Positions 27,419 to 49,030 are shown, numbered from the stretch's first letter. The stretch is DNA of 64,000 nucleotides from Acidobacteriota bacterium (GCA_965209055.1 OZ242374.1:3904001-3968000); one strand, 5' to 3'. Numbers and translations: made by a program. The notes: generated by a model from the letters alone, not told the origin.

Positions 27419-27536
27419 CGAGTGCGCTCCATCGATTGGGAGATTCCCGAAACATAGCAGGAACACGGGTTCCTTGTAACCGATCCGGTTTTCATCGGAC
27501 AATCTGTTCGAAATCGAAAACTGGAGATGGATCCCC

Positions 27537-29159
27537 ATGAGACGATTCACGATTCTGCTGGTTCCGGCGTCCCTTGCGGTTCTCTTCGGCACCGCCGATG
27601 ACACCTGTGCGGAGGGAGGCGAGAACTCCCTCAAGCCGTCTCCGGACGCCGCCCTCTACGCCTACGGCTACCATCAGCGCCCCTACCCGCTGGAACCGGG
27701 ACCCCATCTCTTCGTGGATTGGCGCTACGTCAATCCGGGCCATGTGACCTACAGGTACCGGGGGCAGCGGATCCAGCGGGATCGGCCCGAAGAATACGGC
27801 CCGGAGATCAACTCCAAGGTCGAGGGCCTTCCCCGGGATGTTCCCACCGGAATCCGGATCGAGGTGCAGACGGCGGGCAAGCTGGGACCCGTGATCAGCA
27901 ACGACCGGCCCTGGGAGTACTTCACGCCCTACGTCAACCTGATCCACCATGACGGGAAGTACATTCTCTTTTACAACACCACCACCTACCGGCTCGGCCG
28001 GAGCTCGGAAGGCTACATGGTCTGCTATGCCGAGTCCGAAGACGGCCTGAACTACCGCAAGCCGCCGCTGGGGCAGGTGGAGTTCCAGGGAAGCCGCCAG
28101 AACAACATCGTCCTGGGGCCGGGGGTCTGCAGGTACGGGATTCACGGTCCGGCCATCTTCGTGGATCCCACCGCCGAGCCCGACGAGCGATTCAAGGCCG
28201 TCTACCAGGCCGCCGTCGACCAGGCGACCGTCGAGCGGATGCAGGCCGCCCATCCCGAATCGGTGACTCCCGCCTCGAAAGACGGGACGGCTCTCATGGG
28301 GGCGGTCTCTCCGGACGGCATCCGGTGGCGGGAACTGGAGGAGCCGTTGATGGGCCACGTCAGCGACACCGGAACCACGGCCTACTGGGACGAACGTCTG
28401 GGCCGCTACGTGGGTTACTTCCGGATGGGGGTCTGGGGACGGCGCATGATCGGCCGCGCCGAAACCGCCGATTTCCGGCGCTGGCCCCGCCCGGAGATGG
28501 TTCTGGCCCCCGACCCTTCAGAGTCGGCGTGGGTCGACTACTACACCAACGGCAGGGCGTTCTACCCGGGCACGAGCACCATGCACCTCATGTTTCCCAT
28601 GATCTACCATCGCAACCTGGACACCAGTACGGTGCGGGTCGCCGCCAGCCTGGCTGGACGGATCTGGAACTTCCTGCCGGGAGGACCGGTCCTGAAGCCC
28701 GGGCCGGAGGGAGCGTTCGACGCCGGATGCCTCTTCCCCGGCGCCGGTCTGGCCGAAATCTCCGGAAACCGGGTCATCCTGCCCTACGTCGGATTCGCCG
28801 TCCCTCACAAGTTTCCCCGGCTGAGCCCCCTGGGAGAGATTGCTTTCGCCGTCTGGCCCAAGCAGCGGCTCAGCGCCCTGGTGGCGGACGAGGAGGGGAG
28901 GTTCGTCACGAACCCCCTCTCCAGCCGTGGAAAGTCCCTCTGGCTTAATTTCGACACGGGCCGGAACGGATCCGTGCAAGTGGAGGTGGTTGGCGTGGAG
29001 GGCAGAAGCCTGGCCGAGTGCGATATCCTGTCTGGTGACCGGCTCTCGAAGCAGGTGACCTGGAAGGGGCGTCCGGATCTGGGAGTCGATCCGGGTCAAG
29101 CCTTTCGCCTGCGGTTCCAACTGCGAGGCGCCAAGCTCTTCGCCTTCGAGATGCGTTGA
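27537..29159 (+). CDS. Secreted beta-propeller protein, glycoside hydrolase-like (GH32/43-like)
   Basis: Asp-box motifs (YAESEDGLNY, SPDGIRW); KPPLGQVEFQGSRQNN; paralogous to 32756-34507. Confidence 0.6.
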   Translation: MRRFTILLVPASLAVLFGTADDTCAEGGENSLKPSPDAALYAYGYHQRPYPLEPGPHLFVDWRYVNPGHVTYRYRGQRIQRDRPEEYGPEINSKVEGLPRDVPTGIRIEVQTAGKLGPVISNDRPWEYFTPYVNLIHHDGKYILFYNTTTYRLGRSSEGYMVCYAESEDGLNYRKPPLGQVEFQGSRQNNIVLGPGVCRYGIHGPAIFVDPTAEPDERFKAVYQAAVDQATVERMQAAHPESVTPASKDGTALMGAVSPDGIRWRELEEPLMGHVSDTGTTAYWDERLGRYVGYFRMGVWGRRMIGRAETADFRRWPRPEMVLAPDPSESAWVDYYTNGRAFYPGTSTMHLMFPMIYHRNLDTSTVRVAASLAGRIWNFLPGGPVLKPGPEGAFDAGCLFPGAGLAEISGNRVILPYVGFAVPHKFPRLSPLGEIAFAVWPKQRLSALVADEEGRFVTNPLSSRGKSLWLNFDTGRNGSVQVEVVGVEGRSLAECDILSGDRLSKQVTWKGRPDLGVDPGQAFRLRFQLRGAKLFAFEMR

Positions 29160-29197
29160 GCCCGGCGGTTGTTCGGAAACCCTGGAGGTTGAATTCC

Positions 29198-34549: not shown

Positions 34550-37500
34550 TCAGAAGTAAAACTTCAGGGCCAACTGGATCTGCCGGGCGGCCAGCGTTTG
34601 GGCCAGGACGCCAAAGCCGGCGGTTCCGTAGAGGAGAGTCTGCTGCCTCGCGTTGACCACAAAGTTGGGCCGGTTGGTGGCGTTGAAGGCTTCCACCCGG
34701 GCCTCCAGCCGTTGAGTCTCGGCCAGACGGAAGGTCCGGCGCAGGGAGATGTCCAGGTTGAAGAGGCCGGGGGCCTCGACGACGCCGCGGCCGGAGTTTC
34801 CATATTCAAACGCTGCCGGCAGAGCGAACGCGCTGGTGTCGAACCAGCGGGCGGGAGTCCGCTCGTGGCCGGGCAGATTCGCGTCCCGGATGCGGTCCGG
34901 CCACTGGGACGCTTCCGACCCGGCGTCCAAGGGGTCGCCGGGCAGAGAGACCGTGCGCCAGCCGCCCTCCTGGAAATTGGCGATGGCCCGGATCGACCAT
35001 CCCCTCAACAACTGTGAGGCCAAGCCGCTCTGGAGCAGAGTCCGGTTGGGGCCAAAAGGCAGATCGAATCCGCCCGAAAGCATCAAACGCACCGGAATAT
35101 GGAAGTCCGCCACTCCCCGGGTCGCCTCCAGAGGCAGATTGCGGGACCGGTAAATTCGCCGGGAAGTGTATCCGGTCGTTCCCCCTCCGGTCTGAATCAG
35201 GCGCGACCAGCTCAATGAGGCCAGCAGGTACAGGCCGTCGGCGCCCGCGGCCTTTTCCACCTGGAAGTGCATGCCCTGGTACCAGGAATCGCCGGCTGCA
35301 AACGGGAAATAAACCGCTTGAAGATGAGGCCAAGGCCGCCGAAGCTGCCGGTCTCCGGTCCCCGGAACCGCGTCGTTCCAGGAGACCGTCTCCAGGAGAT
35401 CGGTCGATCGGGAGCCATGGTAGCCGGTGTCCAGCAGCCAGCGGGAAGTGAATTCGTGCTGGAGGCTGAGGCCCCAGGAATGGGTCCGGGACAAGGGCAG
35501 GGGAGTCTGGAATCCGTAGTGGTCGGGAACGGCCGCGTCCCGGTTCTCGTCGGGAAACGGGTCCGACAAGCGCAGGGAAGGGATCTCCAGAGGGCTGTTG
35601 AAAATGAGCCGTTCGGCTCCGGGCCGGGGATTCCGGCTCAGGCGGAGAATCATGTTCAGGTCCGGCTCGTTGCCATGAAGACCGTATCCGGTGCGCAGAA
35701 CGGTCTTGTCCGCCAGGCGAAGCGACAGGCCCAGGCGCGGCAATATTCCGTCCAGAGGGTTCCATCGGACCAGTGGATAGTTGGGTTGGAAGCGGCCCGT
35801 TTCCCAAGGTTTCAGATCCAGCTCGAGCAAGGCGGGGACCGTCTGTCCGGTCAGGGGATCCAGGTTCGACATGAAGCCCCGCCTTTCCCTCCATGGCAGC
35901 CGCAGCTCGTAGCGCAGGCCCAGGTTCAGCGTCAGCCGGGGGCCGGCCTTCCAGGTGTCCTGCAGGTAGAGGTAGTAGCTGTCCTGATGGAATCGCCCCC
36001 GGGAGCCCTCCCCTCCCAAACGGCTTTGAGACACGTAGCCCAGCAGAAAATCGGCGAAACCGTTGCCCGTATACCGGTCGAAGAAGTTGAACCGGCTGCG
36101 ACGGGACGTCACGTAAAGGTTGTAGTGCCGGCGGAAGTGGATGCCGGTTTTCAGGGAATGGTCTCCTTCCACCACCGTCAGGTCTTGATTCGCCTGCCAG
36201 TTGCCCAGGCTGCTGGGGCCGAGGAAGGAATAGTCGCCGATTCTGGTGTAACCCTGGATCTCGACGATGGGCACCCCGATTCGATCCACGTCGCTCTGCA
36301 GGAGTTCCCGAATTCCCAGATCCAACTCCCTGGCGTGGGAGGATATCCGGGACTTGTAGGGACGGCGGAACCAATGGAGGCTGGTCACGGCCTGGACTCT
36401 CGGGCTCAGGCTGCGAGTGTGGGAAAGGGACTGTCCCAATGTGGCCAAGGGGTGGCGGGTGGAGAAGATGCTGATGGGCTGGGTCGAGGTCCAGTGGTTG
36501 GTGTCCAGGACGAAACGTCCGGCCCAACGGCTCACGTCGGATTGTTTCACGTCGATGCGGGCGATGACCTGCGAATTGTCCAAGGGACTGTGGGAGTCGG
36601 GACTGGTGAAGTTCAGGGCTCCGGGTGTGTTGGGTTCGGGCCAGTAACGGAGGAGTTTCAAGGCGACGGGGTCCAGCCGATTTGCCGGGATCCGGTTTTC
36701 CGGGAAAGAGCCTCCCGTCAACGGGTCCCGGATGGGAACGGCGAACCGGCCCTGTTTTTCGCCGGCAGTCGGGACCACTCCGGTGAGAGGCTTGGTCTCC
36801 CGGATCGCACGCAACTGGTAGGAGACGAAGAACCAGGCCCGGTCCCGCCCGTTCAGCAGGCCGGGAAAAAGAAGGGGTCCTCCGAGAGTGGCCCCCAACT
36901 GGTTGCGCTTGAACTCCGCCTTTCGCTGCTCGAAGAAATTGCGGGCGTCCAGGTTGTCGTTCCGGTGAAACCAGAACCAGCCGCCGTGGAATTCGTTTGT
37001 GCCGCTCTTGGTCACCGCCACGATCTGGCCTCCGGGCCGGATGCCGAATTCCGCGGAATAGAGCCCGGTCTTGACATCGAATTCCCTGAGGGCGTCGGTG
37101 CTGGCGTTGAAGGAGGGGGTTCCGTCGCCGTGAGTGAAGAGGGTGCCGTCGATGAAGATCAGGTTGTCCTTGCGCCTCATGCCCAACACTTTGACGCTGC
37201 GGCTGCGGCTTTCGTGGCTGGTCGCGGCCCCGGCCGCCAAGGTGACCAACTGGCCCACGTCACGGGTATTGACCGGCATGCTCTCCAGCTTTTCCTGGTC
37301 GATCAGTTGCCCCCGGTCCTCCCGGCCGGTCCCCGCCAGCACCGTACCGCTGCGGATCGACTGCCGGATCCCGGGATCTCCGGGGACCAGGAGAAAATCT
37401 TCCTCACGAATCTGTTCCACGAGAAGCCGAATGTGGGTTCGGACCTGGGTTTCGTAGCCTGGGAGCGACGCCGTAATCTCGTAGTGGCCGGGAGGCAGAC

Positions 37501-37777
37501 CGCTTCGCCGGTAGTTTCCGTTGGCGTTGGTCAGCAGCAGGAAGGCCTCGTTGGTGTCGACGCGGTGGATTGCCACCTCAACTCCGGCCGCGGCCTCGCC
37601 GTTTTTCTTGCCCACGTGCCCCACCAGGGTTCCGGTGCCCATCTGGGCCAGAGCCTCACCGGGACTCGAGAAGAGAAAGGCGGGCAGTAGAGCCAGGAGC
37701 CGGAGCTGCTGCGCGCGCCGGCGGACGAACGCCGCTGCACGACCGGAGCGCTGCGTAAACCGCATCTGGGGAATCAT
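34550..37777 (-). CDS. TonB-dependent receptor (Oar/carboxypeptidase-regulatory-like N-terminus)
   Basis: VTKSGTNEFHG, LDARNFF, YLQDTWK...LTLNLGLRYE, C-terminal RQIQLALKFYF. Confidence 0.92.
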   Translation of the reverse strand: MIPQMRFTQRSGRAAAFVRRRAQQLRLLALLPAFLFSSPGEALAQMGTGTLVGHVGKKNGEAAAGVEVAIHRVDTNEAFLLLTNANGNYRRSGLPPGHYEITASLPGYETQVRTHIRLLVEQIREEDFLLVPGDPGIRQSIRSGTVLAGTGREDRGQLIDQEKLESMPVNTRDVGQLVTLAAGAATSHESRSRSVKVLGMRRKDNLIFIDGTLFTHGDGTPSFNASTDALREFDVKTGLYSAEFGIRPGGQIVAVTKSGTNEFHGGWFWFHRNDNLDARNFFEQRKAEFKRNQLGATLGGPLLFPGLLNGRDRAWFFVSYQLRAIRETKPLTGVVPTAGEKQGRFAVPIRDPLTGGSFPENRIPANRLDPVALKLLRYWPEPNTPGALNFTSPDSHSPLDNSQVIARIDVKQSDVSRWAGRFVLDTNHWTSTQPISIFSTRHPLATLGQSLSHTRSLSPRVQAVTSLHWFRRPYKSRISSHARELDLGIRELLQSDVDRIGVPIVEIQGYTRIGDYSFLGPSSLGNWQANQDLTVVEGDHSLKTGIHFRRHYNLYVTSRRSRFNFFDRYTGNGFADFLLGYVSQSRLGGEGSRGRFHQDSYYLYLQDTWKAGPRLTLNLGLRYELRLPWRERRGFMSNLDPLTGQTVPALLELDLKPWETGRFQPNYPLVRWNPLDGILPRLGLSLRLADKTVLRTGYGLHGNEPDLNMILRLSRNPRPGAERLIFNSPLEIPSLRLSDPFPDENRDAAVPDHYGFQTPLPLSRTHSWGLSLQHEFTSRWLLDTGYHGSRSTDLLETVSWNDAVPGTGDRQLRRPWPHLQAVYFPFAAGDSWYQGMHFQVEKAAGADGLYLLASLSWSRLIQTGGGTTGYTSRRIYRSRNLPLEATRGVADFHIPVRLMLSGGFDLPFGPNRTLLQSGLASQLLRGWSIRAIANFQEGGWRTVSLPGDPLDAGSEASQWPDRIRDANLPGHERTPARWFDTSAFALPAAFEYGNSGRGVVEAPGLFNLDISLRRTFRLAETQRLEARVEAFNATNRPNFVVNARQQTLLYGTAGFGVLAQTLAARQIQLALKFYF

Positions 37778-37897
37778 TTGTCGACCGTGGCATCTCCGCG
37801 GCGCCGTTTCGCACTGTGTGACGGCGAGCGAAAACCGCGCGTCAGTCTACCACGCAGGGGGTGCGGTTCCGGTGCGGACAGCTCCCGGCCGGCCGCT

Positions 37898-39271
37898 TCA
37901 GTCAAAGAGATGGGCCAGGATGAGATCTCGGACTCCGGACGCCGGGACGCCGCCGTCGGGGACAAGTCCGGGTTCCGTGCTCAGGAAAACCGGTCCCTGA
38001 TTCGGATCTTCCGTGGGCCTGCCGTGGGAACCCTGGACCAGGTTTGCGTCCAGCGGGATGAGGTCCATGAGGTAGCGGAAGCCCAGCGCCTTCTGCAACA
38101 GTCTCAGTCCGACCTTGAGGAAGGGAAGCCGGATCCCCGGGTCCACGAAAAGTTCCGCGGGATCGTAGCCCGGCTTGCGGTGGATGTCCACGGTGCGGGC
38201 GAAATCGGGCGCCGACTTATCGTCGAGCCAGTAGTAGTAGGAGAACCACTTGTCGGCGTGGCTGATGGCCACCAGGTCTCCCGACCGCCGGTGATCGAGC
38301 CCCAATTCCCGCTGGTCCTCCCGGTCCAGGATCCGCTCGATGCCCGGAACCTGCTCCAGCAGTTTTCGGACCTGGGACCGGTGGGCCGGGTCCCGAACGT
38401 AGACGTGGGCGATCTGGTGATCTGCCACGGCGAAGGCGGGGCTGGCGCCCGGGTCCAGGATCTCCAGCCCCAGCTCCGGCCGGACGCGAATCCATCCGGC
38501 CTCGCGAAGGACCCGGTTGATGTGGATGGCGCCGGCTACAGGGGTGATCCCATACTCGGAGAGCACGATGACCCGCGTGTCCCGTTCCCGGAAGTAGTCC
38601 AGCAATCGGCCGCAGACGGCGTCGATTTCCCGGACGTCCTGGTGGACGCCGGGATGACCCGGTCCCAACCGCTGGAGGTTATAGTCCAGATGCGGCAGGT
38701 AGATGAGGGTCAGGGCGGGCCGGTGCCACTCCCAGACCCGCCGGCCCGCCCGGGCGATCCATTGGCTGGAGGCGATGCCGGCGCGGGGACCCCAGAAATC
38801 GAAGAACGGAAAGGGTCCGATGTCCGACTCCAGGCGCTGGGCCAGGTCGGCCGGGTGGGAGTAGATGGCCGGGATCTTCCTGCCGTCGGCCGGGTACATG
38901 GGACGCGGGGTCACGCTCCATTCGGCGCTGCTGTACATGTTGTACCACCAGAAGAGCTTGGCGCAGGTGACGCGGGGGTCGCGCCGACGGGCGGTTTCCC
39001 AGACCTTCTCTCCCGAAACCAGACGGTTGGATTGCCGCCAGAACCAGACCTCGGACAGATCGCGAAAATACCATCCGTTTCCCACGATGCCGTGGCCGGA
39101 GGGGGGGAGGCCGGTCAGGAAGGTGCTCTGGACGGTGGAGGTGACGGCCGGAGTCACCGTGCGCAGGGACCGGATGGCGCCGTTTTGCGCCAAGGCGCTC
39201 AGGTGGGGCGTGTCCGGTCCCAGGAGGGCCCGGGTGAGTCCGACGACGTTGATAACCGCGGTGCGGTGCAC
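37898..39271 (-). CDS. eboF: EboF-like alkaline phosphatase/nucleotide pyrophosphatase family protein
   Basis: VINVVGLT, PAVTSTVQSTFLTG, HGIVGNGWYFRD, YLPHLDYNLQR, LSEYGI, DHQIAHVY, VDIHRKPGYDP, GSHG. Confidence 0.85.
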   Translation of the reverse strand: MHRTAVINVVGLTRALLGPDTPHLSALAQNGAIRSLRTVTPAVTSTVQSTFLTGLPPSGHGIVGNGWYFRDLSEVWFWRQSNRLVSGEKVWETARRRDPRVTCAKLFWWYNMYSSAEWSVTPRPMYPADGRKIPAIYSHPADLAQRLESDIGPFPFFDFWGPRAGIASSQWIARAGRRVWEWHRPALTLIYLPHLDYNLQRLGPGHPGVHQDVREIDAVCGRLLDYFRERDTRVIVLSEYGITPVAGAIHINRVLREAGWIRVRPELGLEILDPGASPAFAVADHQIAHVYVRDPAHRSQVRKLLEQVPGIERILDREDQRELGLDHRRSGDLVAISHADKWFSYYYWLDDKSAPDFARTVDIHRKPGYDPAELFVDPGIRLPFLKVGLRLLQKALGFRYLMDLIPLDANLVQGSHGRPTEDPNQGPVFLSTEPGLVPDGGVPASGVRDLILAHLFD

Positions 39272-39333: not shown

Positions 39334-39939
39334 TCACGTGGCGTCCGTTCGCTTGAGACTGCCGAGCAATCGCTGCAGACCCGCGACGACCTCGCGGTGA
39401 GCCTTTCCGGGGTCCCCGGCCGAGGCGATCATCAGAGCTCCCTCGCTGATCGCGCCGAGAAGCAGGTGGGCCATCGCTCGTACCGGCAGAGGCTTCATCC
39501 TTTCCGCTTTCATGATCGCCTCGAGGCCCCGACTCAGTAATCCCAGTCCGTATTCGGCTTCGACCGTCCGCCAGCGTTCGACACCGAGTACGGCAGGCGC
39601 ATCCAGGAGCAGAATCTGCCGGATTCCCGGCTCGGTGCAAGCATCGAGAACGGCCAGATACCCAGCCTCGAGACGCGCCCAAGGCTCCGCTTCGGCGTCC
39701 ACCGCCGCCTGGATGTGCCCGGCCATCTCGCGCTCCGACGCCTCCACGACGGCGACGAAAAGCGCCTTCTTGTCCCGAAACTGATGATAGAGGGCGCCGC
39801 GGGTGACGCCGGCTCGACGGACGATCTCCTCCGTACCCGTCCCCGCATAGCCCTTCGCTTCAAAAAGTTTCCGCGCTACGCGGACGATCTCTCCGCGCGT
39901 CTTCTCGGACTGAAGGGCTTTTTTGGTCTTTACATGCAT
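39334..39939 (-). CDS. TetR/AcrR family transcriptional regulator
   Basis: ARKLFEAKGYAGTGTEEIVRRAGVTRGALYHQFRDK; start ATG 39939 lies inside an operator palindrome. Confidence 0.93.
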   Translation of the reverse strand: MHVKTKKALQSEKTRGEIVRVARKLFEAKGYAGTGTEEIVRRAGVTRGALYHQFRDKKALFVAVVEASEREMAGHIQAAVDAEAEPWARLEAGYLAVLDACTEPGIRQILLLDAPAVLGVERWRTVEAEYGLGLLSRGLEAIMKAERMKPLPVRAMAHLLLGAISEGALMIASAGDPGKAHREVVAGLQRLLGSLKRTDAT

Positions 39940-39974
39940 ACAGTCTGTATGTATAATGCGTACAGGCTGTATGC
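39929..39974 (+). promoter_or_regulatory. Sigma-70 promoter of the KS-AfsA operon with two TetR-type operators
   Basis: TTTACA(39929-34)-17 nt-TATAAT(39952-57); palindromes CATACAGTCTGTATG (39937-51) and GCGTACAGGCTGTATGC (39958-74). Confidence 0.75.
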
Positions 39975-40010
39975 TATCGCAAGCGGAGTCAGGAATCAAC
40001 GGAGTTATCG

Positions 40011-41876
40011 ATGATGAATGGATCTGTGTCCGGTGTGGTCATTGCCGCCATCAGCGAGGTCGTGCCCGATCTCGAGGTGAGCAATGAGTTCTTGCTTCAA
40101 GAGGGACGGCTGGTTCGGCCGCGCGCCCAGCGCGCCCTGGAGAAAATGGGCGTGGAAGGCCGAAGGCAATTCTCGGCCGAGCATTCGGATCCGATGGAAC
40201 TGCTTGAGGTCTGCGCCCGGCGATGCCTCGACCCTTACGGACCGGACGAAATCGGTCTGATCGCCACTTCCACCTGCAGCATCAAACGGCCCTCAGCCCG
40301 TCTCGTTCCCAATCCGGCATCCGATCTTCGCGTGCGCCTGGGATTGCCCAATGCGGGCACGTTGAGCTCGTATGGCGGCTGCACCTCTTTTCTCGGTCTC
40401 CTCGGCGCGGCTGCGGACTTTGTTCGGCTGAATCAACTCGCTGCGTTCGTCGGCGTCGTCGAATTGGATAACCGGAATGTTCCCACTGGGGTTCCCCGCT
40501 ATCTATTTGGCGATGGATGCGTAGGAGTGCTGCTGAGACCATCCGAGGAGCCGGATTCGGGATTCGTCGCGTACGACCGGCGCACGGGAACCGATGGCAG
40601 CGCAGAGTCCGATCGCATTGAGCGCGATATGAATGAGGGGCTCGTTTTCCAAAGCTGGGGGCGCTATGCCAACGCGCTATACATGAATGGAGCGGCAGTA
40701 AACAATTTCATCCAAAAAAAGGTCGCCCCGGCGCTGATAGGTTTTCTCGAGCGGTGCAACGCTTCTCCGGACAGTGTCGACGTCTTCGTCCCGCATCAGG
40801 CCAACCTGAGGGCCATTCGGTTTTTGCATCGCCGGTGCCTTCCCAACTCTCTGCTGGTGGAAACGGTCCGGCGCCGAGGAAACAACGCGGGAGCCAGCCT
40901 CGGCATCGCGATGGCCAAGGCCTTCACCGGTCTGATCCAGCGGGGCCAGCGGATCCTGCTGAGTGCCTTTGGATCCGGACCCAACATCGTCAATATGCTG
41001 TACCACGCAACCGGGCAGGAGGTTGTTGTCCGCGAGACGCTTACGCCAAGTGATGCCGGCGCCGGTAACCGGCCGACCGAATGGTTGGTGTCCCCGGGGA
41101 ATGCGGCTCCCCGTTATGCGCTGCTCACCCCGCCGGTTTTCGACCGCTACGAAGGAACCGGGATCCGGGTCCTGGTGGAGGATCCATGGCAGATCGACTT
41201 TTTTACCCGAGTCCTGCCCGGCCCCTGTTTGCTCATCGGCGCCAGCGCTCCCGCATCCGAGACCGAGTTCCGGCTGCAGCGGTGGGCAAACGGTCGCAAG
41301 CGAGAGCGGACAATTCGAACGGAGCCCGAGGTTGCGGGCGACTACGACGATAAGATTCAGGGTTTGCTCCTTCGCGTTTCCCCATTCGATGCGCCCTCCC
41401 TTCTGGACGATCTGCGCCAGAAGGGACGGATCGATCGTTGGATGGTCCACAAGCGACACGAGGCCAACGTCATGTTGTCCGGTGCTGTGCAGGTAGGAGG
41501 GCTCATTCATTTCCTGGCCTCGCCCCTGACAGAGGAGTTCCGGTTTGATCACGAGTCGGGGCATCTACAGGGGATGGCCCTGATGGAGATTGTTCGCCAG
41601 GCAATGATCGCTTCTTCGCATGTCATCGGAGTGCCCCGGGGGTGGGGGATGGTGATGACGAGTTTCCACGCGGATTACCACAAATTTGTCGACGGCGCAG
41701 CGCCCATCATTGTGAGGACGCTTCCCGGTCTCGGTAAGAGTTGGGCGCGACGAATGGAGGACTGGCAAAACAAACGTCCACATCGCGCCTGGGGTGTCGC
41801 CCAGGTCTTCCAGAACGGCCAATGTTGCGTTAGCGCCCACGTGACCGGAATGCTGCGGCCGTCGCCTGCCAAATGA
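40011..41876 (+). CDS. FabH-like ketosynthase III fused to an AfsA/ScbA-like hotdog domain
   Basis: KSIII triad GGCTSF / VPHQAN / GNNAGAS plus LFGDG and FGSG; C-terminal VHKRHEANVMLS...DHESGHLQGMALMEIVRQA. Confidence 0.8.
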   Translation: MMNGSVSGVVIAAISEVVPDLEVSNEFLLQEGRLVRPRAQRALEKMGVEGRRQFSAEHSDPMELLEVCARRCLDPYGPDEIGLIATSTCSIKRPSARLVPNPASDLRVRLGLPNAGTLSSYGGCTSFLGLLGAAADFVRLNQLAAFVGVVELDNRNVPTGVPRYLFGDGCVGVLLRPSEEPDSGFVAYDRRTGTDGSAESDRIERDMNEGLVFQSWGRYANALYMNGAAVNNFIQKKVAPALIGFLERCNASPDSVDVFVPHQANLRAIRFLHRRCLPNSLLVETVRRRGNNAGASLGIAMAKAFTGLIQRGQRILLSAFGSGPNIVNMLYHATGQEVVVRETLTPSDAGAGNRPTEWLVSPGNAAPRYALLTPPVFDRYEGTGIRVLVEDPWQIDFFTRVLPGPCLLIGASAPASETEFRLQRWANGRKRERTIRTEPEVAGDYDDKIQGLLLRVSPFDAPSLLDDLRQKGRIDRWMVHKRHEANVMLSGAVQVGGLIHFLASPLTEEFRFDHESGHLQGMALMEIVRQAMIASSHVIGVPRGWGMVMTSFHADYHKFVDGAAPIIVRTLPGLGKSWARRMEDWQNKRPHRAWGVAQVFQNGQCCVSAHVTGMLRPSPAK

Positions 41877-42529
41877 GCTGCATCAAGCGACAGGCGCCGG
41901 TGCTCTTCCTGATTGGGGGTATTCCCTGCCTGTTGGGAATCACAGTCCACCGCCTGCTCACACAGCCGTGGCCTCCTCACTGGGTGACGCTGGTTGTGGC
42001 AGGGATTTATCTGGGTTGGCTGCTTGCCGAAGCGGGCATCACGATGCGGGAACCGAGGAAGGAAGAGGCAACCGACGATCGGAGCAGTCTCGGACTATAC
42101 GCAACGGCGCGATGTGCGACTGTTCTCGGGACCGTTCTTTCGCCGCCCATGGAGGGAACGGTATCGGTGCGGTGGGTCCTGGTAGTCGCCGGAGTCACGA
42201 TCATGATCCTGGGCGTGGGCTTACGTCTGGCCGCGATCCGGAAACTGGCCGCCACCTACAGTCACAGCGTTCGGATCCCCTCTGACGGCATCGTCCGAAG
42301 CGGCGTCTATCGCTATCTTCGGCATCCCGCCTATACGGGGATGGTACTGGGTAATCTCGGATTCGTTGTCGCCCTGGCCAGCCCATGGGGAATGGCGGCA
42401 TTGCTCGGGCTGCTCCTACCCGCCGTGACTTATCGGATCCTGGTCGAAGAGTCGCTATTGCTTTCTACGCTGCCCGAGTATCGGGAGTTCGCAAAGGCGA
42501 GAAAGCGCCTCATCCCATTCCTATGGTAA
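41873..42529 (+). CDS. Isoprenylcysteine carboxyl methyltransferase (ICMT/PEMT) family membrane protein
   Basis: GVYRYLRHPAYTG, RILVEESLL, KRLIPFLW. Confidence 0.85.
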   Translation: MSCIKRQAPVLFLIGGIPCLLGITVHRLLTQPWPPHWVTLVVAGIYLGWLLAEAGITMREPRKEEATDDRSSLGLYATARCATVLGTVLSPPMEGTVSVRWVLVVAGVTIMILGVGLRLAAIRKLAATYSHSVRIPSDGIVRSGVYRYLRHPAYTGMVLGNLGFVVALASPWGMAALLGLLLPAVTYRILVEESLLLSTLPEYREFAKARKRLIPFLW

Positions 42530-43503
42530 TGAACGGTTGCGACTTGGTCCTGATCGGCGCAACGGGGTACGTCGGCACCGCCGTCCGGCGCAAACTGATC
42601 GAGGCTTGTCCCCGGAGCAGGGTGCGCGTCCTGGCCCGAAAGCGGCCGCCTCAGGGCACGCCGGCTATCCGGTGGATCCGATGTTCTCTCCCCGAAGTGC
42701 CGGATGGTGCGTTTCCACGCCGGCCCTACTTGCTCGTACATCTCGCCACCAGGCAGATCGATCCGGATGGCACAGGGTTTGTGGCCACAAACGTCACCGG
42801 TACGCTGAACCTGCTCCGCAAGTCAGATGCCAACCTTCGCGGCGTCGTGTACGGCAGCTCGGCGTCCGTGTACGGGCAGGGGCCCTTGCGGCCGGCGTTG
42901 GAGGTGGATCGTCCGAACCCGGTTACACCCCTGGCCAGCAGTCGAAGGGGGGCCGAGAAGGTGATTCTCAAAATGGCGGCAGAACGAGACTTCGGTGCGT
43001 ACCTTTGTCGGCCTCGCTTCATTATTGGCGGTGGGGATCGTTTTCTGGTTCCGCTGCTGGTTCGACTCGCCAGGATGCGACTGGCTGGTAGCCAAGCCGT
43101 GTCCTATTCCTTCATTCACGTTGACGACTACGCCAAAGTCATTCTCTTCATGCTGCAGAGGCTGGCAACCATACACGGGAATGGATCCAATCCGGAACGG
43201 CTGGCCGTCAACGTCGCCTACAGATCCGCACTCCCGCAGGAACAGATCCTGTCCACCGTACGTGGTATGGCGGGGCTTCCGGGTCCCCTGGTGAAATTGC
43301 GCTGCCCGCGTTCCCTTCTTGCCGGTCTCAGAGCGATGCCGGGTCGACGGCCGGACCGGCTGGCTACCCGCCTCGAGTTGCTGATGCAAGATCAGATTCT
43401 CTCCTGCCGCCGTCTCTCCGAGATGGGTTGTGACATTCCATCGCGTTCTCCCCAAGGACGGCTTGAGGTCGCCATTCGCCAATACCAAGAGGTCGGAAAA
43501 TGA
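42529..43503 (+). CDS. NAD(P)-dependent epimerase/dehydratase (extended SDR, atypical active site)
   Basis: GATGYVG, NVTGT, YGSSASVYG; YxxxK is replaced by LASSR; TAATG coupling. Confidence 0.8.
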   Translation: MNGCDLVLIGATGYVGTAVRRKLIEACPRSRVRVLARKRPPQGTPAIRWIRCSLPEVPDGAFPRRPYLLVHLATRQIDPDGTGFVATNVTGTLNLLRKSDANLRGVVYGSSASVYGQGPLRPALEVDRPNPVTPLASSRRGAEKVILKMAAERDFGAYLCRPRFIIGGGDRFLVPLLVRLARMRLAGSQAVSYSFIHVDDYAKVILFMLQRLATIHGNGSNPERLAVNVAYRSALPQEQILSTVRGMAGLPGPLVKLRCPRSLLAGLRAMPGRRPDRLATRLELLMQDQILSCRRLSEMGCDIPSRSPQGRLEVAIRQYQEVGK

Positions 43504-46163
43504 CCAGGACCGCCACTCCCTTGTTCGTTGTCGACTATCGGTCGAAGCTGCTGCAGGCTGCGGTGGGGCCAAAACTTGCGAATCTTGCTGCATTACACGC
43601 CGCCGGGTTTGCGGTTCCCCCCTTCTTCTGCCTGACGACGCACGCCTATGAGGCGGTGCTGTCTGCCCTCCGGCCCCAGGTCGAGGGTCTGTTCCGGGGT
43701 TGCGGCTCGTTTGACGCCGTGGCGGTACAGTCCTTGTCACGGAGAATCCAGCGGATGTTCCTCGACGTCCGCCTGCCCAACGGATTGGAAGAAGCGATCA
43801 AGGCTTCGTTTGAGGATCTCTTCGAGTACGGGGAGTTCGTGGCAGTTCGCGCGTCCGTGGCAGGGCACCGCGCCGAGGAGAGTGAAGACAGCGCGCACCA
43901 TCCCATGGCCGGCATGAGTGATTCGTTCCTGTTTGTTGGCGCCACGCAACTGGTTGCCAAAATCCGTCGCTGTTGGGCCTCGGGGTACGCCCCTGAAGCG
44001 ATCACCTATAGACGGCGGCTCGGGATCGCCCCTCACGGGTTCTCCGTTGCAGTGGGGGTACAGCGCATGGTCGCGTCGGCGCGATCCGTAGTGGCCTTCT
44101 CCTGCGACCCGCGGACAACTCTGAGGCAGACCGTCATCGCGGCAGGCTACGGAGTGGGGGAAGGCGTCGTCCAAGAGAGAGTGGGTGTGGATCACTTTTT
44201 CGTCAATCGAAAGTCCAGGGCCATCACCATTGAGATTGGTCCCAAGACGACAAAGCTGGTAAGGAACCCCGACGGCGACGGGTCCCCGCTCGTTGCCGAA
44301 CCCGTCCCCGTCAAGGCGGTGCGGGAACCCTGTTTGACCACGCGCGAGATTCTGAAACTCGACGCTATCGCACAAAAGGTGGAATGCCTGCTGGGATCGC
44401 CCCAGGACATCGAAGGCGCGTACGATTCGAAAGGCCGCCTCTATCTGCTGCAGAGCCGCCCGGTGCACCTGGACCATCGCACCATCCGAGTGTGGAGTAG
44501 CGCCAACGTCTCCGAGAGCTTTCCAAACGTTACGACCCCGCTGACGTACAGCATGGCGCGGCTCTTTTACCGCACCGTATTCTACGACTTCATCCGGCGC
44601 AGCGGGTGCCCGCCCGGCGTCCTTTACGAACAACTCCCCGACTTCGAACGCATGCTCGGCTTCATCAACGGTCGTGTCTACCATTCCTTGACCTACCTGC
44701 TCAGAGTGAACGGCATGGTGCCCATCGCCAAATGGTTCATAAGCGATCTGGAGGATGTGCTCGAGATGCCGGCTTCGATCGCTCAGGAGGACAGCGGTGG
44801 TGGAGGACTGTGGGCGACCTGCCGCGCGTCAATGATTGCCGGGCGCTGCGCGATGCGCTTGGGAAGGGAGTTTCGCGGGTTTGAAAGGTGGTGGCGGGAA
44901 TACCTCGGAGACCTCCGTCAGATCGAACTCGACGGCGCCGATCCGATGGTGGCGATGGCCACGTTTCGTGAAGTATGGAAGCAAGTCGGCCGCTGGTGGG
45001 GACTGACGCTGATCAACCACTGGTTGATCAACACCTACTTTGCCGCCGCCCGGAAACTGATCGGGAAATGGAATCTTGAGATCAACCTGAGCGATCTACT
45101 GTGCCGGGAGGATAACGCCGGCTCCCGTGCGATCACTTCCGCCATAAGGATCGCGGAACTCATTCGGGCCGATCCTCGTTCGGTAGAACTGTTCGAATCC
45201 ATGGACGATCAGGCGGTGTGGTCGGCCATCTTGACCCAGCCCGATTTTCGAGAGCTTCGAGGGTTAATCCAGCACCATCTCCGCAAGTACGGTGATCGTG
45301 GGGTAGCCGAACTCAACATGGAGGCCCCCGGCTTTCGACGCGAGCCCAAGCTGTTCGTCCGGACTTTGCGATCCTGCGTCTCCAAGGGACTGGTTGCGGA
45401 TGAGCTGGCGCACTCGGAGAAACAGATACGCGACCGCGCCAAAGAGCAGGTCTGGGCCGCACTGGGACGCCGCTCGATCCGCAGCTTCCTGTTTCTGGGG
45501 CTGATACACAGGCTCCGGATCACCGTCAACCAGCGGGAGGACAGCCGTTTCTGGCGCGGTGAGCTCTTCGGGTACTGCAAAGACATTTTTGACGTTCTCG
45601 CCAGCGCGCTGGTGAAGCAAGGTGCTCTGGACCGTCGTGCCGATGCCGTGTTTCTGACCCATGGGGAGATCTTCGGGTTCTTCGACGGCACGGGGGTGAC
45701 CGGCGACTTGCAAGCCTTGGTGGGAATTCGCCGGAGGGAGAAAGAGCGCCATGAACTCGATGCCGGCCCTCCTCGGGACTTTACGACCTGCGGACCCGTG
45801 CAGCCGGCAATCCCGAAAAACAGATCCGCGCTTGGGACCGACCGGGTCCTGCGCGGCATCGGATCGAGCGCCGGCGTCGTGGAGGGGCGCGCCAGGATCG
45901 TCCTCGACCCCACCAATGTCTGCATCGAGGCCAACGACATACTGGTGGCGCGCGAAACGGATCCCGGTTGGTTATTCCTCATGCTGGCGGGCCGGGGGAT
46001 TGTCGTTGAACGTGGCAGCATGTTGTCGCATACGGCGATCAGTGGACGGAAATTTGGCATTCCGACCGTTGTCGGGGTTCCGGACGCGACGCGTGTCATT
46101 CCCGAAGGGGCACGCGTCAGGCTGGATGGTGCGGGCGGTACGGTCACCATCGTGGAGGGCTGA
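43500..46163 (+). CDS. PEP-utilising enzyme, rifampin-phosphotransferase-like architecture
   Basis: N-terminal PPDK ATP-grasp (GPKLANL, VAVRAS, GVGEGVV, PQDIEGA, LLQSRPV); C-terminal His swivel (ETDPGW, GSMLSHTAI...FGIP). Confidence 0.88.
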   Translation: MTRTATPLFVVDYRSKLLQAAVGPKLANLAALHAAGFAVPPFFCLTTHAYEAVLSALRPQVEGLFRGCGSFDAVAVQSLSRRIQRMFLDVRLPNGLEEAIKASFEDLFEYGEFVAVRASVAGHRAEESEDSAHHPMAGMSDSFLFVGATQLVAKIRRCWASGYAPEAITYRRRLGIAPHGFSVAVGVQRMVASARSVVAFSCDPRTTLRQTVIAAGYGVGEGVVQERVGVDHFFVNRKSRAITIEIGPKTTKLVRNPDGDGSPLVAEPVPVKAVREPCLTTREILKLDAIAQKVECLLGSPQDIEGAYDSKGRLYLLQSRPVHLDHRTIRVWSSANVSESFPNVTTPLTYSMARLFYRTVFYDFIRRSGCPPGVLYEQLPDFERMLGFINGRVYHSLTYLLRVNGMVPIAKWFISDLEDVLEMPASIAQEDSGGGGLWATCRASMIAGRCAMRLGREFRGFERWWREYLGDLRQIELDGADPMVAMATFREVWKQVGRWWGLTLINHWLINTYFAAARKLIGKWNLEINLSDLLCREDNAGSRAITSAIRIAELIRADPRSVELFESMDDQAVWSAILTQPDFRELRGLIQHHLRKYGDRGVAELNMEAPGFRREPKLFVRTLRSCVSKGLVADELAHSEKQIRDRAKEQVWAALGRRSIRSFLFLGLIHRLRITVNQREDSRFWRGELFGYCKDIFDVLASALVKQGALDRRADAVFLTHGEIFGFFDGTGVTGDLQALVGIRRREKERHELDAGPPRDFTTCGPVQPAIPKNRSALGTDRVLRGIGSSAGVVEGRARIVLDPTNVCIEANDILVARETDPGWLFLMLAGRGIVVERGSMLSHTAISGRKFGIPTVVGVPDATRVIPEGARVRLDGAGGTVTIVEG

Positions 46164-47059
46164 TGCCGGCGGCACCTGTCCGTAGTCTGATTCGCTTCGT
46201 CTGGCGTCGGTATCCCCCCCTTCCGTATGTGGCCTGGGTATCCCTTTGGACCTGTGCGCTCGAGGGTCTCCTCGAACGACCCGAGCGCCTCGTCGACAGG
46301 CTGGATGTTCCCTTTGTCTTGACCGGGCTCAGCCTGTTCCTCGTCTCCTTCTTCATGCGGGTCGTCGATGAGATCCGCGACTACGAATACGATCGGGTGC
46401 ACCATCCTGAACGGGAGTTGGCCGCCGGCGTCGTGTCGTTCAGCGACCTGTACCTGCTGCTGGCGGTCACCGCCGTGATCCTTCTGGCTCTAAATGCGGG
46501 GAGGCCCGTCGGGGCCGGGCTGCTCGGCGCGATCATGGCGTATTCTCTCTTCTTGTGGTGGCTGGAAGTGCGTTGGCGCTTCTATCGCGAGCGGATGTTC
46601 TTCGCCATCGGCGTGGCCATTCAACTGCATGTGTTGCAGGCGATCTACGTTTGGGTTGTTCGTCCGGACTCAACGGCAGCCGCGCCGGCCATGAGCGTGG
46701 TCTTCGCAATCGCCTCCTTCGTTCTCGCCTACCTGCACTGGGAGGTGGCCCGGAAGACCCGCTGGCCCACGGCGGGCACTCCAGCGGCGAAGCTCTATTC
46801 AACGGAAGTAGGCGCCGTAGCCAGCAGTGCGATCTCCTTGGGGCTGATGACCGCTGCCGTAACGTTTCTCTCGTTCATTCTGCAGCCGTGGCAGCAGTGC
46901 GGCGCCGGCGTCGGTTGGCTCGTTCTGGCTCCTTGGGTTTGTTCGCTGCTCAATACGCTTGGATTCCTGTTGAGGACTCCCGGCGAGCATCGGCTGGGAC
47001 CGGGCGCGGCGATCGCCTATTTTTCATTTCTGGGAATTGTTGTCTTGGGTACTCTTTAG
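46163..47059 (+). CDS. UbiA prenyltransferase-like membrane protein
   Basis: RVVDEIRDYEYDRVHHPERELAAG (DxxxDxxxD...RP-like motif); about 8 TM; TGATG coupling. Confidence 0.75.
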   Translation: MPAAPVRSLIRFVWRRYPPLPYVAWVSLWTCALEGLLERPERLVDRLDVPFVLTGLSLFLVSFFMRVVDEIRDYEYDRVHHPERELAAGVVSFSDLYLLLAVTAVILLALNAGRPVGAGLLGAIMAYSLFLWWLEVRWRFYRERMFFAIGVAIQLHVLQAIYVWVVRPDSTAAAPAMSVVFAIASFVLAYLHWEVARKTRWPTAGTPAAKLYSTEVGAVASSAISLGLMTAAVTFLSFILQPWQQCGAGVGWLVLAPWVCSLLNTLGFLLRTPGEHRLGPGAAIAYFSFLGIVVLGTL

Positions 47060-47272: not shown

Positions 47273-48160
47273 CTAGGTCTCGACGACCGGGGTCTGGCCG
47301 CCTCGCAGGACCGTACTTCCTCCGTAGAACTCCGTCTGGTCGATGCTGGGCCGGGTGTCGATGCCGGCCAGGTCCAGCCGCTGGCTCTGGGAAAAGAAGT
47401 GGGCGGGATTGTCCCAGACGATGGTTCGGATGGTCCGGAGCGTGATGCCGCTCTCCAACATCAGGTCGGTGGTCTTGGGGACCTTCAGGGGATCGCTGAT
47501 GCCCCAATCCGCGGCGCTGTTGATGAGGATCCGCTCGCTGCCGTACTCCTTCACCAGCTTCACCATCCGGACCTCGTCCATCTTGGTGTGGGGATAGATG
47601 GTGTGGCCGGCCCAGCAGCCGGTGTCCAGCACCAGGGGCAGCGTCTCTTCCGTGTTGTGGTCGATGAGGGCCCTCTCCTCGGGGAAGCCGACGTTGCGGA
47701 TGAGGTCCAAGGAACGGATGGTGCCCCGCTTCTTGTCCCGGTGGGGCGTATGCACCAGGACCGGCAGATCCATTTCCATGGCCAGTTCCAACTGGCGGGC
47801 GAAGATGCGCTCCTCCGCATCGGTCTGATCGTCGTACCCGATCTCCCCCACGGCGACCACGCCATCTTTCTGCAGGTAGCGGGGAAGCAGCGAGAGCACT
47901 TCCTCAGCCAGCCTGGGGTTGTTGGCCTCCTTGGGGTTCAGTCCGATGGTGCAGAAATGACGGATGCCGAATTGCGACGCCCGGAACCGCTCCCAGCCCA
48001 CGAGGCTGTTGAAGTAGTCGATGAAGGAGCCGACGTTGGTTCTGGGCTGCCCCAACCAGAAGGAGGGCTCGACGATGACGAGGATCCCGTTTTGGGCCAT
48101 GGCCGAGTAGTCGTCCGTGGTCCGGGAGGTCATGTGAATGTGAGGATCGAAGATCTTCAT
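47273..48160 (-). CDS. eboB: EboB-like TatD family metallohydrolase
   Basis: DPHIHMTSRTTDDY, EPSFWLGQPRT, GWERFRASQFGIRH, GEIGYDD, HTPHRDKK, DHN, NSAADWGISDPL. Confidence 0.88.
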   Translation of the reverse strand: MKIFDPHIHMTSRTTDDYSAMAQNGILVIVEPSFWLGQPRTNVGSFIDYFNSLVGWERFRASQFGIRHFCTIGLNPKEANNPRLAEEVLSLLPRYLQKDGVVAVGEIGYDDQTDAEERIFARQLELAMEMDLPVLVHTPHRDKKRGTIRSLDLIRNVGFPEERALIDHNTEETLPLVLDTGCWAGHTIYPHTKMDEVRMVKLVKEYGSERILINSAADWGISDPLKVPKTTDLMLESGITLRTIRTIVWDNPAHFFSQSQRLDLAGIDTRPSIDQTEFYGGSTVLRGGQTPVVET

Positions 48161-48169
48161 GGTGGAAAT

Positions 48170-49030
48170 TCATTGGACCATCTTGGCCAACGAGGCGTCA
48201 ATAGCGGCCAGAACGCGGTCGTCGGATTCAACCGTTCTCCGCTGCTCGAGCTGCGCGCGGCTTCGTTGGTCCCGGGCGTATCCCAGAGCCCGCGCAGCCC
48301 AATAGCGGTGACGGGAATTGCCCTGCTGCAGATAGGGGTAGATGCGCCCGATCCTCTCGGGAGCGATGCGCGGCGCCACGGCCCACCAGATGTCGGGAGG
48401 AACGTCGCGTCCGGCCGCCTCCCGTTCGCTGGCGTAGTCGTCGGCCATCCGGGAGAGCTCCGGATTGAAGCGGGCTTCCAGCCCCATGATGCGATCCATG
48501 CGGATCGCGTTGAACAGGCTCTTGAGCACCATCTGGTTGAAGTTCAGTTCCGGGAAGTGCGCCGCAGGGTAGGGATTTTCGCAGGCGATGGCTTCCAGCA
48601 GGGGAACGATGTTGGTCCGGCAGGCGTCGACGGCCGCGTCCAGGAACCGACTGCGTTGGGGAAGCAGATTGATTCCCCGGAGCCAGCTCTGCTGCTCGCG
48701 GCTGTCACCCTGCCGATAGCATTCCAGCACCGTTTCGGAATATTCGTCCGGAGGCAGATGGGCAATTCTCAGCAGGAGGATGGCCCGTCCCAGTTCGTCC
48801 AGGCCCCAGTGATCGAGGGGAAGATCGGGCCGCAAGGTGCTCCAGCGGAGAGCTTCTTCCGGGTCCTGGGCAAGAGCTTTCTTTCCTAACCAGAAGGAGG
48901 CTCCCGCGTAGTTGCCCAGCAGCCGGTTCAGATCGACAGGAGCCGCCGTGCTTCGGCAGGCCTTTTGAAACCAGCTCCAGCCGCGGGAGGAGGCGCGGGC
49001 CCTTAGAATCCGGGTCAGAAAATCGATCAC
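48170..49030 (-). CDS. eboA: EboA-like protein with HEAT-like C-terminus
   Basis: WGLDELGRAILL, GDSREQ, DACRTN, NPYPAAHFPELNFNQMVLKSLF, DYASEREAAGRDVP. Confidence 0.82.
   Translation of the reverse strand: MIDFLTRILRARASSRGWSWFQKACRSTAAPVDLNRLLGNYAGASFWLGKKALAQDPEEALRWSTLRPDLPLDHWGLDELGRAILLLRIAHLPPDEYSETVLECYRQGDSREQQSWLRGINLLPQRSRFLDAAVDACRTNIVPLLEAIACENPYPAAHFPELNFNQMVLKSLFNAIRMDRIMGLEARFNPELSRMADDYASEREAAGRDVPPDIWWAVAPRIAPERIGRIYPYLQQGNSRHRYWAARALGYARDQRSRAQLEQRRTVESDDRVLAAIDASLAKMVQ

Follow-up and report, generated by a model that had tools for sequence, protein, structure and literature searches.

A five-gene acidobacterial operon encoding a ketosynthase III-AfsA fusion, a candidate distant cousin of the salinipostin-type pathways

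Introduction

Salinipostins, cyclipostins and cyclophostin, butyrolactones in which the phosphate is retained, are potent, selective serine-hydrolase inhibitors, and the enol-phosphotriesters of the cyclophostin type are natural organophosphate inhibitors of serine hydrolases. Here, we describe an operon of five genes and its divergent TetR-family gene, located at positions 39,334 to 47,059 of a 64,000-nucleotide stretch of an Acidobacteriota genome (GCA_965209055.1, OZ242374.1:3904001-3968000; hereafter the window), in which the first gene joins a ketosynthase III (KSIII) to an AfsA-family hotdog domain. In our preferred reading, to which we give about an even chance on the basis of analogy, the operon is TetR-repressed and would produce a small lipid-like lactone that retains its phosphate, making it a distant non-actinobacterial cousin of the salinipostin, cyclipostin and cyclophostin pathways. 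The product is possibly a methyl phosphotriester like cyclophostin.

The salinipostin cluster of Salinispora comprises spt1-9 (Kudo 2020 preprint; Creamer 2021). In this pathway, Spt9 generates a butenolide phosphate, and the phosphate is retained (10.1101/2020.10.11.335315). Spt6, of the nucleoside diphosphate kinase (NDK) type, makes a pyrophosphate through which closure of the phosphate ring is proposed to occur, while the roles of Spt1 and Spt7, along with the late steps including phosphotriester formation, are only proposed (10.1101/2020.10.11.335315). By the published Pfam definitions, Spt1 comprises PF00391 and PF01326, Spt7 is PF01040 and Spt9 is PF03756, with Spt6 defined by PF00334 (NDK), Spt5 by PF07993, Spt2 by PF00501 (AMP-ligase) and Spt4 by PF00550 (acyl carrier protein, ACP) (10.1101/2020.10.11.335315; PMC8209734). 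The 91 published spt-like clusters are all actinomycete, and each contains spt1, spt5, spt6, spt7 and spt9 (PMC8209734); Spt6 is both essential for salinipostin and present in all 91 (10.1101/2020.10.11.335315; PMC8209734).

Outside this group, the available portion of Creamer 2021 names only two kinds of fusion, spt6-spt9 and those within trans-acyltransferase (trans-AT) polyketide synthases (PKS). The proposal for the styrolides has a free-standing KSIII, StoI, make a 3-oxo thioester that the AfsA-like StoB esterifies with a C3 sugar phosphate, suggested to be glyceraldehyde 3-phosphate (GAP) (Klapper 2020, PMC7154651). The literature, covered mostly by titles and abstract openings, yielded no description of a KSIII-AfsA fusion or of the four-gene cassette described below, nor did a cyclophostin gene cluster turn up in the sources seen in this way. 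What sets the present locus apart is a new fusion and a one-repeat form of AfsA; the system is not without relatives, these being the salinipostin-type phospho-butenolide clusters. An earlier note on this DNA, written from the sequence alone, had considered the KSIII-AfsA arrangement novel, which stands for the fusion itself but not for the idea of a KSIII feeding an AfsA-like enzyme, already proposed for the styrolides.

Organization of the operon and its control region

The features of the locus, with the domains of the fusion given separately, are as follows.

39334..39939, - strand: TetR-family repressor gene, 201 aa (Pfam TetR_N, E 6.9e-18; TetR_C_41, E 6.2e-29)
39929..39973, no strand assigned: divergent promoter and predicted operator (11/12 matches in a promoter scan; direct and inverted repeats)
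40011-41876, + strand: KSIII-AfsA fusion gene, 621 aa, in a 639-codon open frame
40011..41000, + strand: FabH-like ketosynthase III domain, residues 1-330 of the fusion, with Cys124, His262 and Asn291
41073..41420, + strand: middle alpha/beta domain with no family assignment, residues ~355-470, from an AlphaFold model
41436..41864, + strand: single AfsA-family hotdog, residues 476-618 (PF03756)
41873..42529, + strand: ICMT/PEMT-family membrane methyltransferase gene, 218 aa (Pfam ICMT, E 1.9e-14; PEMT, E 3.1e-12)
42529..43503, + strand: gene for a protein of the extended short-chain dehydrogenase/reductase (SDR) fold with an atypical active site, 324 aa (Pfam Epimerase, E 6.6e-18)
43500..46163, + strand: gene for an enzyme with PPDK_N and phosphoenolpyruvate (PEP)-utiliser swivel domains, 887 aa (PPDK_N, E 1.6e-62; PEP-utilizers, E 1.5e-21)
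46163..47059, + strand: gene for a UbiA-fold, Spt7-like integral membrane protein, 298 aa, assigned by predicted structure and motif

The four junctions between the five co-oriented open reading frames (ORFs) read ATGA, TAATG, ATGA and TGATG, such that each downstream gene begins on or within the preceding stop codon. These junctions, and the divergent TetR gene, are exactly as the earlier note had them; its gene list was right in content but not in sequence, the actual order being fusion, ICMT-like, SDR-like, PEP-utilising and UbiA-like. The longest form of the SDR-like ORF opens at 42385, and the ATG at 42529 agrees with both the coupling and the Rossmann motif. As that note also stated, the operon encodes no ACP: the 6.08-Mb genome has seven PP-binding matches (PF00550), none of which falls inside the window. 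Its placement of the host in the Acidobacteriota was likewise borne out.

The 71-base gap between the TetR and fusion genes holds the promoter and two palindromes. The + strand promoter is near-consensus, with a -35 element TTTACA (39929-39934), a 17-nt spacer and a -10 element TATAAT (39952-39957). Two 15-bp palindromes of the CATACAGnCTGTATG type are found at 39937-39951, within the spacer, and at 39959-39973, just past the -10 element; their arms are identical in all six loci compared, with a variable centre base. Judged from the sequence, promoter and palindromes are arranged as expected where a repressor controls transcription. The longest TetR ORF, 39334-39999, reaches upstream to a TTG at 39999, while reading from the ATG at 39937-39939 gives MHVKTKK; this ATG, which lies inside the first palindrome of the putative operator, is the likely start codon.

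The ketosynthase III-AfsA fusion

The fusion protein gave Pfam matches to ACP_syn_III_C on residues 246-326 (54.4 bits against a cut-off of 26.6) and to AfsA (PF03756) on residues 478-613 (62.9 bits against 24, E 4e-17), the two families that the earlier note had expected of 40011-41876. In alignments with solved FabH structures, residues Cys124 (GGC), His262 (PHQAN) and Asn291 (GNNAGAS) fall on the catalytic triad motifs, in keeping with that note's description of an intact Cys-His-Asn ketosynthase joined to an AfsA-like hotdog. The best sequence match of the ketosynthase domain in the PDB is FabH 4dfe (E 1.7e-18), and the 45 distinct PDB sequences that match it at E <= 1 are all of KSIII type by their listed names. 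The curated housekeeping FabH models, however, score far below their cut-offs (NCBIfam fabH, 108.9 bits against 249; PRK09352, 88.8 against 292) and a separate FabH-like gene occurs at 2339371-2340306 of the same genome, from which we conclude that the domain is not the housekeeping FabH.

The fusion is intact in five Acidobacteriota genomes besides the window's own, six in all. Nine full-length relatives of 620-637 aa, from several sources, are 79-94% identical to it, the next protein in the list being a plain FabH at 27%. In a search of 1.84 billion representatives made with no profile, the best 150 matches held two full-length forms, one from the window's clade and the other P0123, a hypothetical protein from an isolate genome of the myxobacterium Pendulispora brunnea, which belongs to another phylum. 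P0123 aligns at 38% identity (residues 8-614 on 6-616) and retains the triad motifs, and a fragment from the same search, P0126, also spans the ketosynthase-AfsA junction. The window's genome is a single-contig metagenome-assembled genome with 7.4% contamination by marker genes; a 10-kb contig from an independent run, belonging to a different study, spans 39900-42600 without gaps and differs by 29 substitutions, and no insertion or deletion is listed in any of the four runs compared. The relatives keep both the triad and the hotdog motifs, by which measure the fusion is under selection.

Residues 331-621 were modelled by AlphaFold from a 40-sequence alignment (m0e350579272c), with a mean predicted local distance difference test (pLDDT) score of 86.5 and a predicted template modelling score (pTM) of 0.85. 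In the model, the region following the ketosynthase forms a domain of alternating strands and helices that is not a hotdog. This middle region is conserved in P0123, P0126 and P0127; it had no PDB sequence match and no usable match in the ESM Atlas, and the C-terminal part of the fusion had no match among plasmids (tblastn) or PDB sequences. The last domain adopts a hotdog fold, for which the best solved match is FabZ 1u1z (Z 12.0, root-mean-square deviation 2.7 over 133 aligned residues), and Foldseek likewise returned FabZ or thioesterases. The motif quoted in the earlier note, VHK...DH..GH.QGM.LME..RQA, is present with invariant core residues; across the 40 aligned sequences H480, K481, N486, E509, D513, H514, H518, G521, E526, R529, Q530, A534, H537 and Q601 do not vary. 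The Glu and Arg of the AfsA motif are essential in ScbA.

Like the classical AfsA/ScbA/BarX enzymes with their ArpA/ScbR receptors, the locus pairs a Pfam AfsA domain bearing HK...DH...ExxRQ with an adjacent TetR-family regulator. Unlike those enzymes, which have two AfsA repeats, the fusion gives a single AfsA match, whereas canonical acidobacterial AfsA ORFs (354-393 aa) give two each, and the ScbA/BarX and ScbR models score far below cut-off on the window proteins (for the ScbA/BarX equivalog model NF041195, 30.5 bits against 200). The nearest relatives of the C-terminal half are 'AfsA-related hotdog' proteins of ~330 aa from Chlorobium, Prosthecochloris, Corallococcus and others, which share the two-part layout; a profile of this one-repeat subgroup scores its members at 145-187 bits and a Streptomyces clavuligerus protein at 51. 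By sequence, then, the hotdog is of the AfsA family but of an unstudied one-repeat kind. The AfsA-type assignment of the earlier note stands as family similarity, but the domain is a single hotdog behind an alpha/beta domain that falls below the ScbA/BarX cut-off, and activity of the fusion with dihydroxyacetone phosphate (DHAP) is an extrapolation. AfsA-type chemistry outside the actinomycetes would appear to use this one-repeat enzyme form.

In the gladiofungin/gladiostatin trans-AT PKS, as described in the parts of the literature available, an AfsA-type domain is also fused to a ketosynthase system and the chain is released as a butenolide; there, however, the domains belong to modular PKS proteins of large size that include ACP domains, whereas here a stand-alone KSIII carries the AfsA-type domain and no ACP is encoded. 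The styrolide/acaterin systems of Pseudomonas, a Gram-negative host like that of the window, resemble the fusion in that a KSIII is proposed to make a 3-oxo thioester for an AfsA-like enzyme. They differ in using separate proteins, ACP-like proteins, an AMP-ligase and other tailoring enzymes, in losing the phosphate and, as far as the source describes them, in having no PEP-utiliser, UbiA or ICMT gene. The fusion may offer 'Rosetta-stone' support for a direct hand-over from KSIII to an AfsA-type enzyme, so far only proposed, for the styrolides.

The four downstream proteins

The ICMT-like methyltransferase is intact, and its translation reads RHPxYxG and EE..L, which we take to be ICMT-like motifs, near the C-terminus. 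An ICMT-family relative, LmtA, methylates a phosphate group of lipid A, according to a review; the match of the LmtA model to the ICMT-like protein itself is negligible (16.5 bits).

The SDR-like protein retains the Rossmann motif GATGYVG. At the position of the catalytic YxxxK, however, alignment with solved SDRs places LxxxR (PLASSRRGAEK), and this holds in all six orthologues. With the catalytic Tyr and Lys replaced by Leu and Arg, a simple reduction step by this protein is doubtful, and with it the 'reduce' step of the earlier note. OleA/OleD-type head-to-head condensation was considered and rejected: OleD matches at 30.7 bits, where 580 is the cut-off, and the catalytic Tyr is absent.

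The 887-aa enzyme has the architecture of Spt1, which is also that of rifampin phosphotransferase (RPH), PigC and RedH: three parts that include an ATP-grasp PPDK_N domain and a swivel domain, whose His-containing motif (SMLSHTAISGRKFGIP) is present. Two solved chains of the rifampin-phosphotransferase type, 5hv1 and 5fbs, match it at E ~1e-58. It differs from RPH, PigC and RedH in that their models fall far below cut-off (NCBIfam rifamycin phosphotransferase, 288 bits against 999; PigC, 238 against 1300; RedH, 256 against 1350) and its middle, substrate-binding part is without assignment. A model named for PEP synthase gave 476.6 bits, also below its cut-off.

The 298-aa protein had no Pfam match at E <= 0.01, PF01040 included, although some of its homologues carry PF01040; the NCBIfam prenyltransferase model PRK13592 matched at E 5.6e-9, below its cut-off. 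By Foldseek, the top matches of its predicted structure (mce6b097235ae, pLDDT 80.1) are all of the UbiA superfamily, among them the digeranylgeranylglyceryl phosphate (DGGGP) synthase structures 6m31 and 7bpu (template modelling score, TM, 0.64-0.69), a membrane phosphoribosyltransferase (8j8j) and the UbiA homologues 4od4 and 4tq3, with a TM range of 0.62-0.69 over 6m31, 7bpu and 4od4. A first Asp-rich motif, D69-x3-D73-x3-D77, is invariant across 23 sequences together with its surroundings (R66, D69, E70, D73, Y76, D77 ... P82, R84, G89). UbiA-type proteins are expected to carry a second Asp-rich motif; its typical form was not seen in the 298-aa protein, which has E194..R197 K198 instead. 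On the strength of the model, this membrane protein belongs to the UbiA superfamily.

Relationship to salinipostin-type clusters

Three of the five operon proteins match families that define spt clusters: the window has counterparts of Spt9 and Spt1 by Pfam family and, in the UbiA-like protein, a candidate counterpart of Spt7 by fold. The earlier note had not recognised the gene set, a view that no longer holds given these matches and the occurrence of the same cassette in S. clavuligerus (see below). The window departs from the salinipostin clusters in adding the KSIII fusion and an ICMT, in having one AfsA repeat and in residing in another host phylum; the Spt2 family (PF00501) is not among the Pfam assignments of its six genes, and a counterpart of the ACP Spt4 is absent. 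With counterparts of Spt9 and Spt1 present but none of Spt6 and no clear one of Spt5, we consider the operon related to the spt type, not a member of it under the published definition.

When the UbiA-like protein was searched against plasmid-encoded proteins, S. clavuligerus alone was returned (16 records), leading to a second, one-directional cassette.

NZ_CP065235.1 454064-460742, one direction: sister cassette of overlapping genes on the S. clavuligerus megaplasmid, from the annotated neighbourhood

Its order is AfsA-related hotdog, ICMT-family methyltransferase, PEP/pyruvate-binding protein, UbiA-like homologue, NADP-dependent oxidoreductase, NUDIX protein and major facilitator superfamily (MFS) transporter. 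The two cassettes share the order and overlap of the single AfsA-related hotdog, ICMT, PPDK_N/PEP-utiliser and UbiA-like genes, at identities of 43% over 190 aa for ICMT, 37% over 927 columns for the PEP-utiliser, 35% for the UbiA-like protein and 25% for the hotdog. They differ in that the S. clavuligerus cassette has no ketosynthase fused or near, on a plasmid without a KSIII above cut-off; its reductase is an NADP oxidoreductase of the medium-chain dehydrogenase/reductase (MDR) type, where the window has an atypical SDR; NUDIX and MFS genes follow; and no TetR gene is adjacent. An AfsA-like gene, SCLAV_p0812, which may be that of the cassette, is listed on pSCL4 in Medema 2010 (PMC2997539).

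The shared order, ICMT included, in two phyla marks the methyltransferase as an integral part of a second cassette type, while the ketosynthase fusion is, from the sequences compared, an addition seen in Acidobacteriota and Pendulispora. Together, the window operon and its S. clavuligerus counterpart would define a compact second type of cluster, in which a methyltransferase replaces the fatty-alcohol genes. The five-gene unit is small enough for expression, and the sister cassette resides in a culturable, genetically tractable strain.

Conservation, boundaries and spread

The six-gene unit recurs in five other Acidobacteriota genomes, bearing out the synteny that the earlier note had proposed to look for. 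The TetR gene adjoins the fusion in all five related loci, where the ICMT-like and SDR-like genes are adjacent too; the PEP-utiliser gene was found in four by length-filtered tblastn and in the fifth (L004) by colinearity, and the UbiA-like gene in four. In the remaining locus, L002, an unrelated 408-aa ORF on the - strand follows the PEP-utiliser gene at 9700-11600, where the UbiA-like gene is missing. In four of the five loci (all but that of the closest genome), similarity to the window ends at ~39.23 and ~47.10 kb, which argues that the TetR gene and operon form a discrete unit, an accessory island.

Among 401 sampled Acidobacteriota genomes, the window's included, the full-length fusion was found in five: three of six in its own genus, one of two in a sister genus and one of seven in a genus of another family. 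The other nine of the 14 matches at E <= 1e-20 cover the ketosynthase part only. AfsA domains of any kind occur in 8/401; canonical two-repeat AfsA genes were seen in a few other Acidobacteriota at L020/L031 (G230:C6), L027/L032 (G230:C3), L021/L028 (G250:C13) and L022/L029 (G131:C90), with genome G230 carrying two of them plus the fusion. DNA near-identical to 39334-47059 is found in sequencing runs labelled sponge metagenome from several studies, with word shares of 0.72 (X5, X6), 0.38 and 0.32; no RNA run is listed for it.

Outside the Acidobacteriota, the PEP-utiliser (45-47% identity) and the UbiA-like protein (42-47%) both have their nearest homologues in one set of Corallococcus and Stigmatella species, and the two sets of homologue clusters share the size of their longest contig (40,766 bases in C. 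praedator, 15,709 in C. llansteffanensis). Co-location of the two genes in Corallococcus/Stigmatella may be suggested from these equal longest contigs and the species names, its only basis. Scans for distant relatives with the single proteins P0123 and P0125 found none.

Proposed pathway

Taken together, the domains suggest the following route. The ketosynthase III would build a beta-ketoacyl thioester by condensing a starter acyl-CoA and a malonyl thioester; since the operon encodes no ACP, the latter would probably be the malonyl-ACP used in fatty-acid synthesis. By analogy with the AfsA family, the fused hotdog would esterify the hydroxyl of DHAP, GAP or a like C3 sugar phosphate with this acyl group, and closure of the ester would give a butenolide phosphate. 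As ketosynthase III enzymes form dimers, the single hotdog would be expected to pair too. The PPDK_N/PEP-utiliser enzyme, in analogy to rifampin phosphotransferase, PigC and Spt1, would draw on ATP and its swivel His, and one of the intermediate's oxygens would be phosphorylated or activated. Alkyl or prenyl transfer, ring closure or O-methylation at the phosphate or a neighbouring oxygen, by the UbiA-fold protein and the ICMT, may follow and yield a phosphodiester or phosphotriester. The SDR-fold protein may bind a nucleotide or use another mechanism. TetR would bind the two palindromes over the operon promoter, probably being released by the product or an intermediate.

We speculate further, and rate it as rather unlikely, that the four-gene cassette of the window and S. 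clavuligerus could be a route to O-methyl bicyclic enol-phosphotriesters of the cyclophostin type, with the ICMT methylating the phosphate as LmtA does and the KSIII supplying a short beta-ketoacyl unit. According to a review, the phosphorus of cyclophostin bears a methoxy group and its position 5 a methyl group; a phosphate O-methyltransferase would account for the former and an acetoacetyl unit for the latter. If true, this would place cyclophostin-type chemistry in Acidobacteriota, on DNA that is also found in runs labelled as sponge metagenome, and in myxobacteria, and would provide a first handle on phosphotriester closure.

Several observations weigh against the phosphate-retaining lactone proposed here. 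The window lacks Spt6, the single NDK match of its genome lying ~2.1 Mb away at 1804219-1804620, and the S. clavuligerus plasmid, in likeness to the window, has no NDK gene. NAD_binding_4 (PF07993), the family of Spt5, is only sub-threshold in the window, at 15.5 bits against 20.1. The link to the Spt proteins is indirect, running through Pfam families in common, one fold and the cassette of S. clavuligerus. The AfsA part, by Pfam and the model, has one repeat instead of two, its hotdog fold is common to dehydratases and thioesterases, and no characterised member is among the names returned for the one-repeat subgroup, whose profile scores the C-terminal repeat of canonical acidobacterial AfsA at ~40 bits and the N-terminal repeat at 5-13. 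The SDR-like protein is without the catalytic Tyr and Lys, and the UbiA-like gene is absent from L002. Finally, none of the 24 matches listed for the 298-aa protein is from Pendulispora, so that the fusion there may work in another context.

Alternative explanations

A classical diffusible autoregulator system, as in AfsA/ArpA and ScbA/ScbR, would have the fusion make a butenolide or gamma-butyrolactone signal that the other enzymes tailor, with the divergent TetR protein as its receptor. The position of the TetR gene, with conserved palindromes over the operon promoter, fits this, and the best NCBIfam model for the TetR protein is that of the ScbR family (NF041196, E 1.1e-15). That match, however, stays at 58.3 bits where the cut-off is 150, and it is confined to the N-terminal 80 positions, the DNA-binding part. 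Moreover, the AfsA part fails the ScbA/BarX model, neither a phosphatase nor a BprA-type reductase is encoded, and two integral-membrane enzymes and an ATP-dependent phosphotransferase are foreign to classical gamma-butyrolactone loci as described in the sources available. We consider a classical autoregulator improbable, while noting that it overlaps with the phospho-lactone reading, as a phospho-lactone product could itself serve as ligand of the TetR protein.

We hold it equally improbable that no lactone is made at all, with the hotdog acting on what the ketosynthase makes, in the manner of a thioesterase or dehydratase, while the membrane enzymes build a modified membrane lipid or some other compound derived from fatty acids, for instance a methyl ester or a phosphate lipid carrying a prenyl or alkyl group. 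Such a role would suit a single hotdog that, among solved folds, comes closest to FabZ and thioesterases, a UbiA-like model closest to an archaeal lipid synthase (DGGGP synthase), a methyltransferase of the ICMT/PEMT enzymes, which act on lipids, and an SDR-like protein with weak matches to HpnA and OleD, all far below cut-off. Yet the hotdog passes the AfsA Pfam cut-off with the invariant HK...DH...ExxRQ retained, the cassette accompanies AfsA-related genes in Streptomyces too, and a patchy, accessory distribution with a dedicated repressor suits a specialised metabolite better than a membrane lipid. That the fusion is an assembly or frameshift artefact of two genes, which the earlier note had named as a way for its proposal to fail, can be dismissed almost outright given the same unbroken ORF in five other genomes and nine full-length protein clusters, the Pendulispora homologue in an isolate genome of another phylum, the gap-free independent contig and four runs with no indel.

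Flanking genes and other features of the window

The operon is flanked at 34550-39271 (- strand) and 47273-49030 (- strand) by genes for a TonB-dependent-receptor-like barrel (587 bits), a type I phosphodiesterase/nucleotide pyrophosphatase, a TatD-family hydrolase and a HEAT-repeat protein. These flanks are kept beside the operon in only one of the five related loci, which indicates that they are not part of the operon unit. The gene set of ebo clusters includes TatD, phosphodiesterase and UbiA-like genes, and the TatD and phosphodiesterase genes near the UbiA-like gene prompted us to consider an 'ebo'-type cluster, a candidate that we rejected on the same grounds of conservation.

Elsewhere in the window, several long ORFs without a Pfam family lie at 51-58 kb. 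A CreD-family inner membrane protein (491 bits) is encoded at 26048-27634 (- strand) and a two-domain M16 peptidase at 29156-31960 (+ strand). Type I CRISPR-Cas genes occupy 7316-12778 (- strand), where 7316-10147 encodes a Cas3 HD/helicase (PF18019, PF22590) and 10140-11771 a Cas protein of the GSU0054 family (PF09609).

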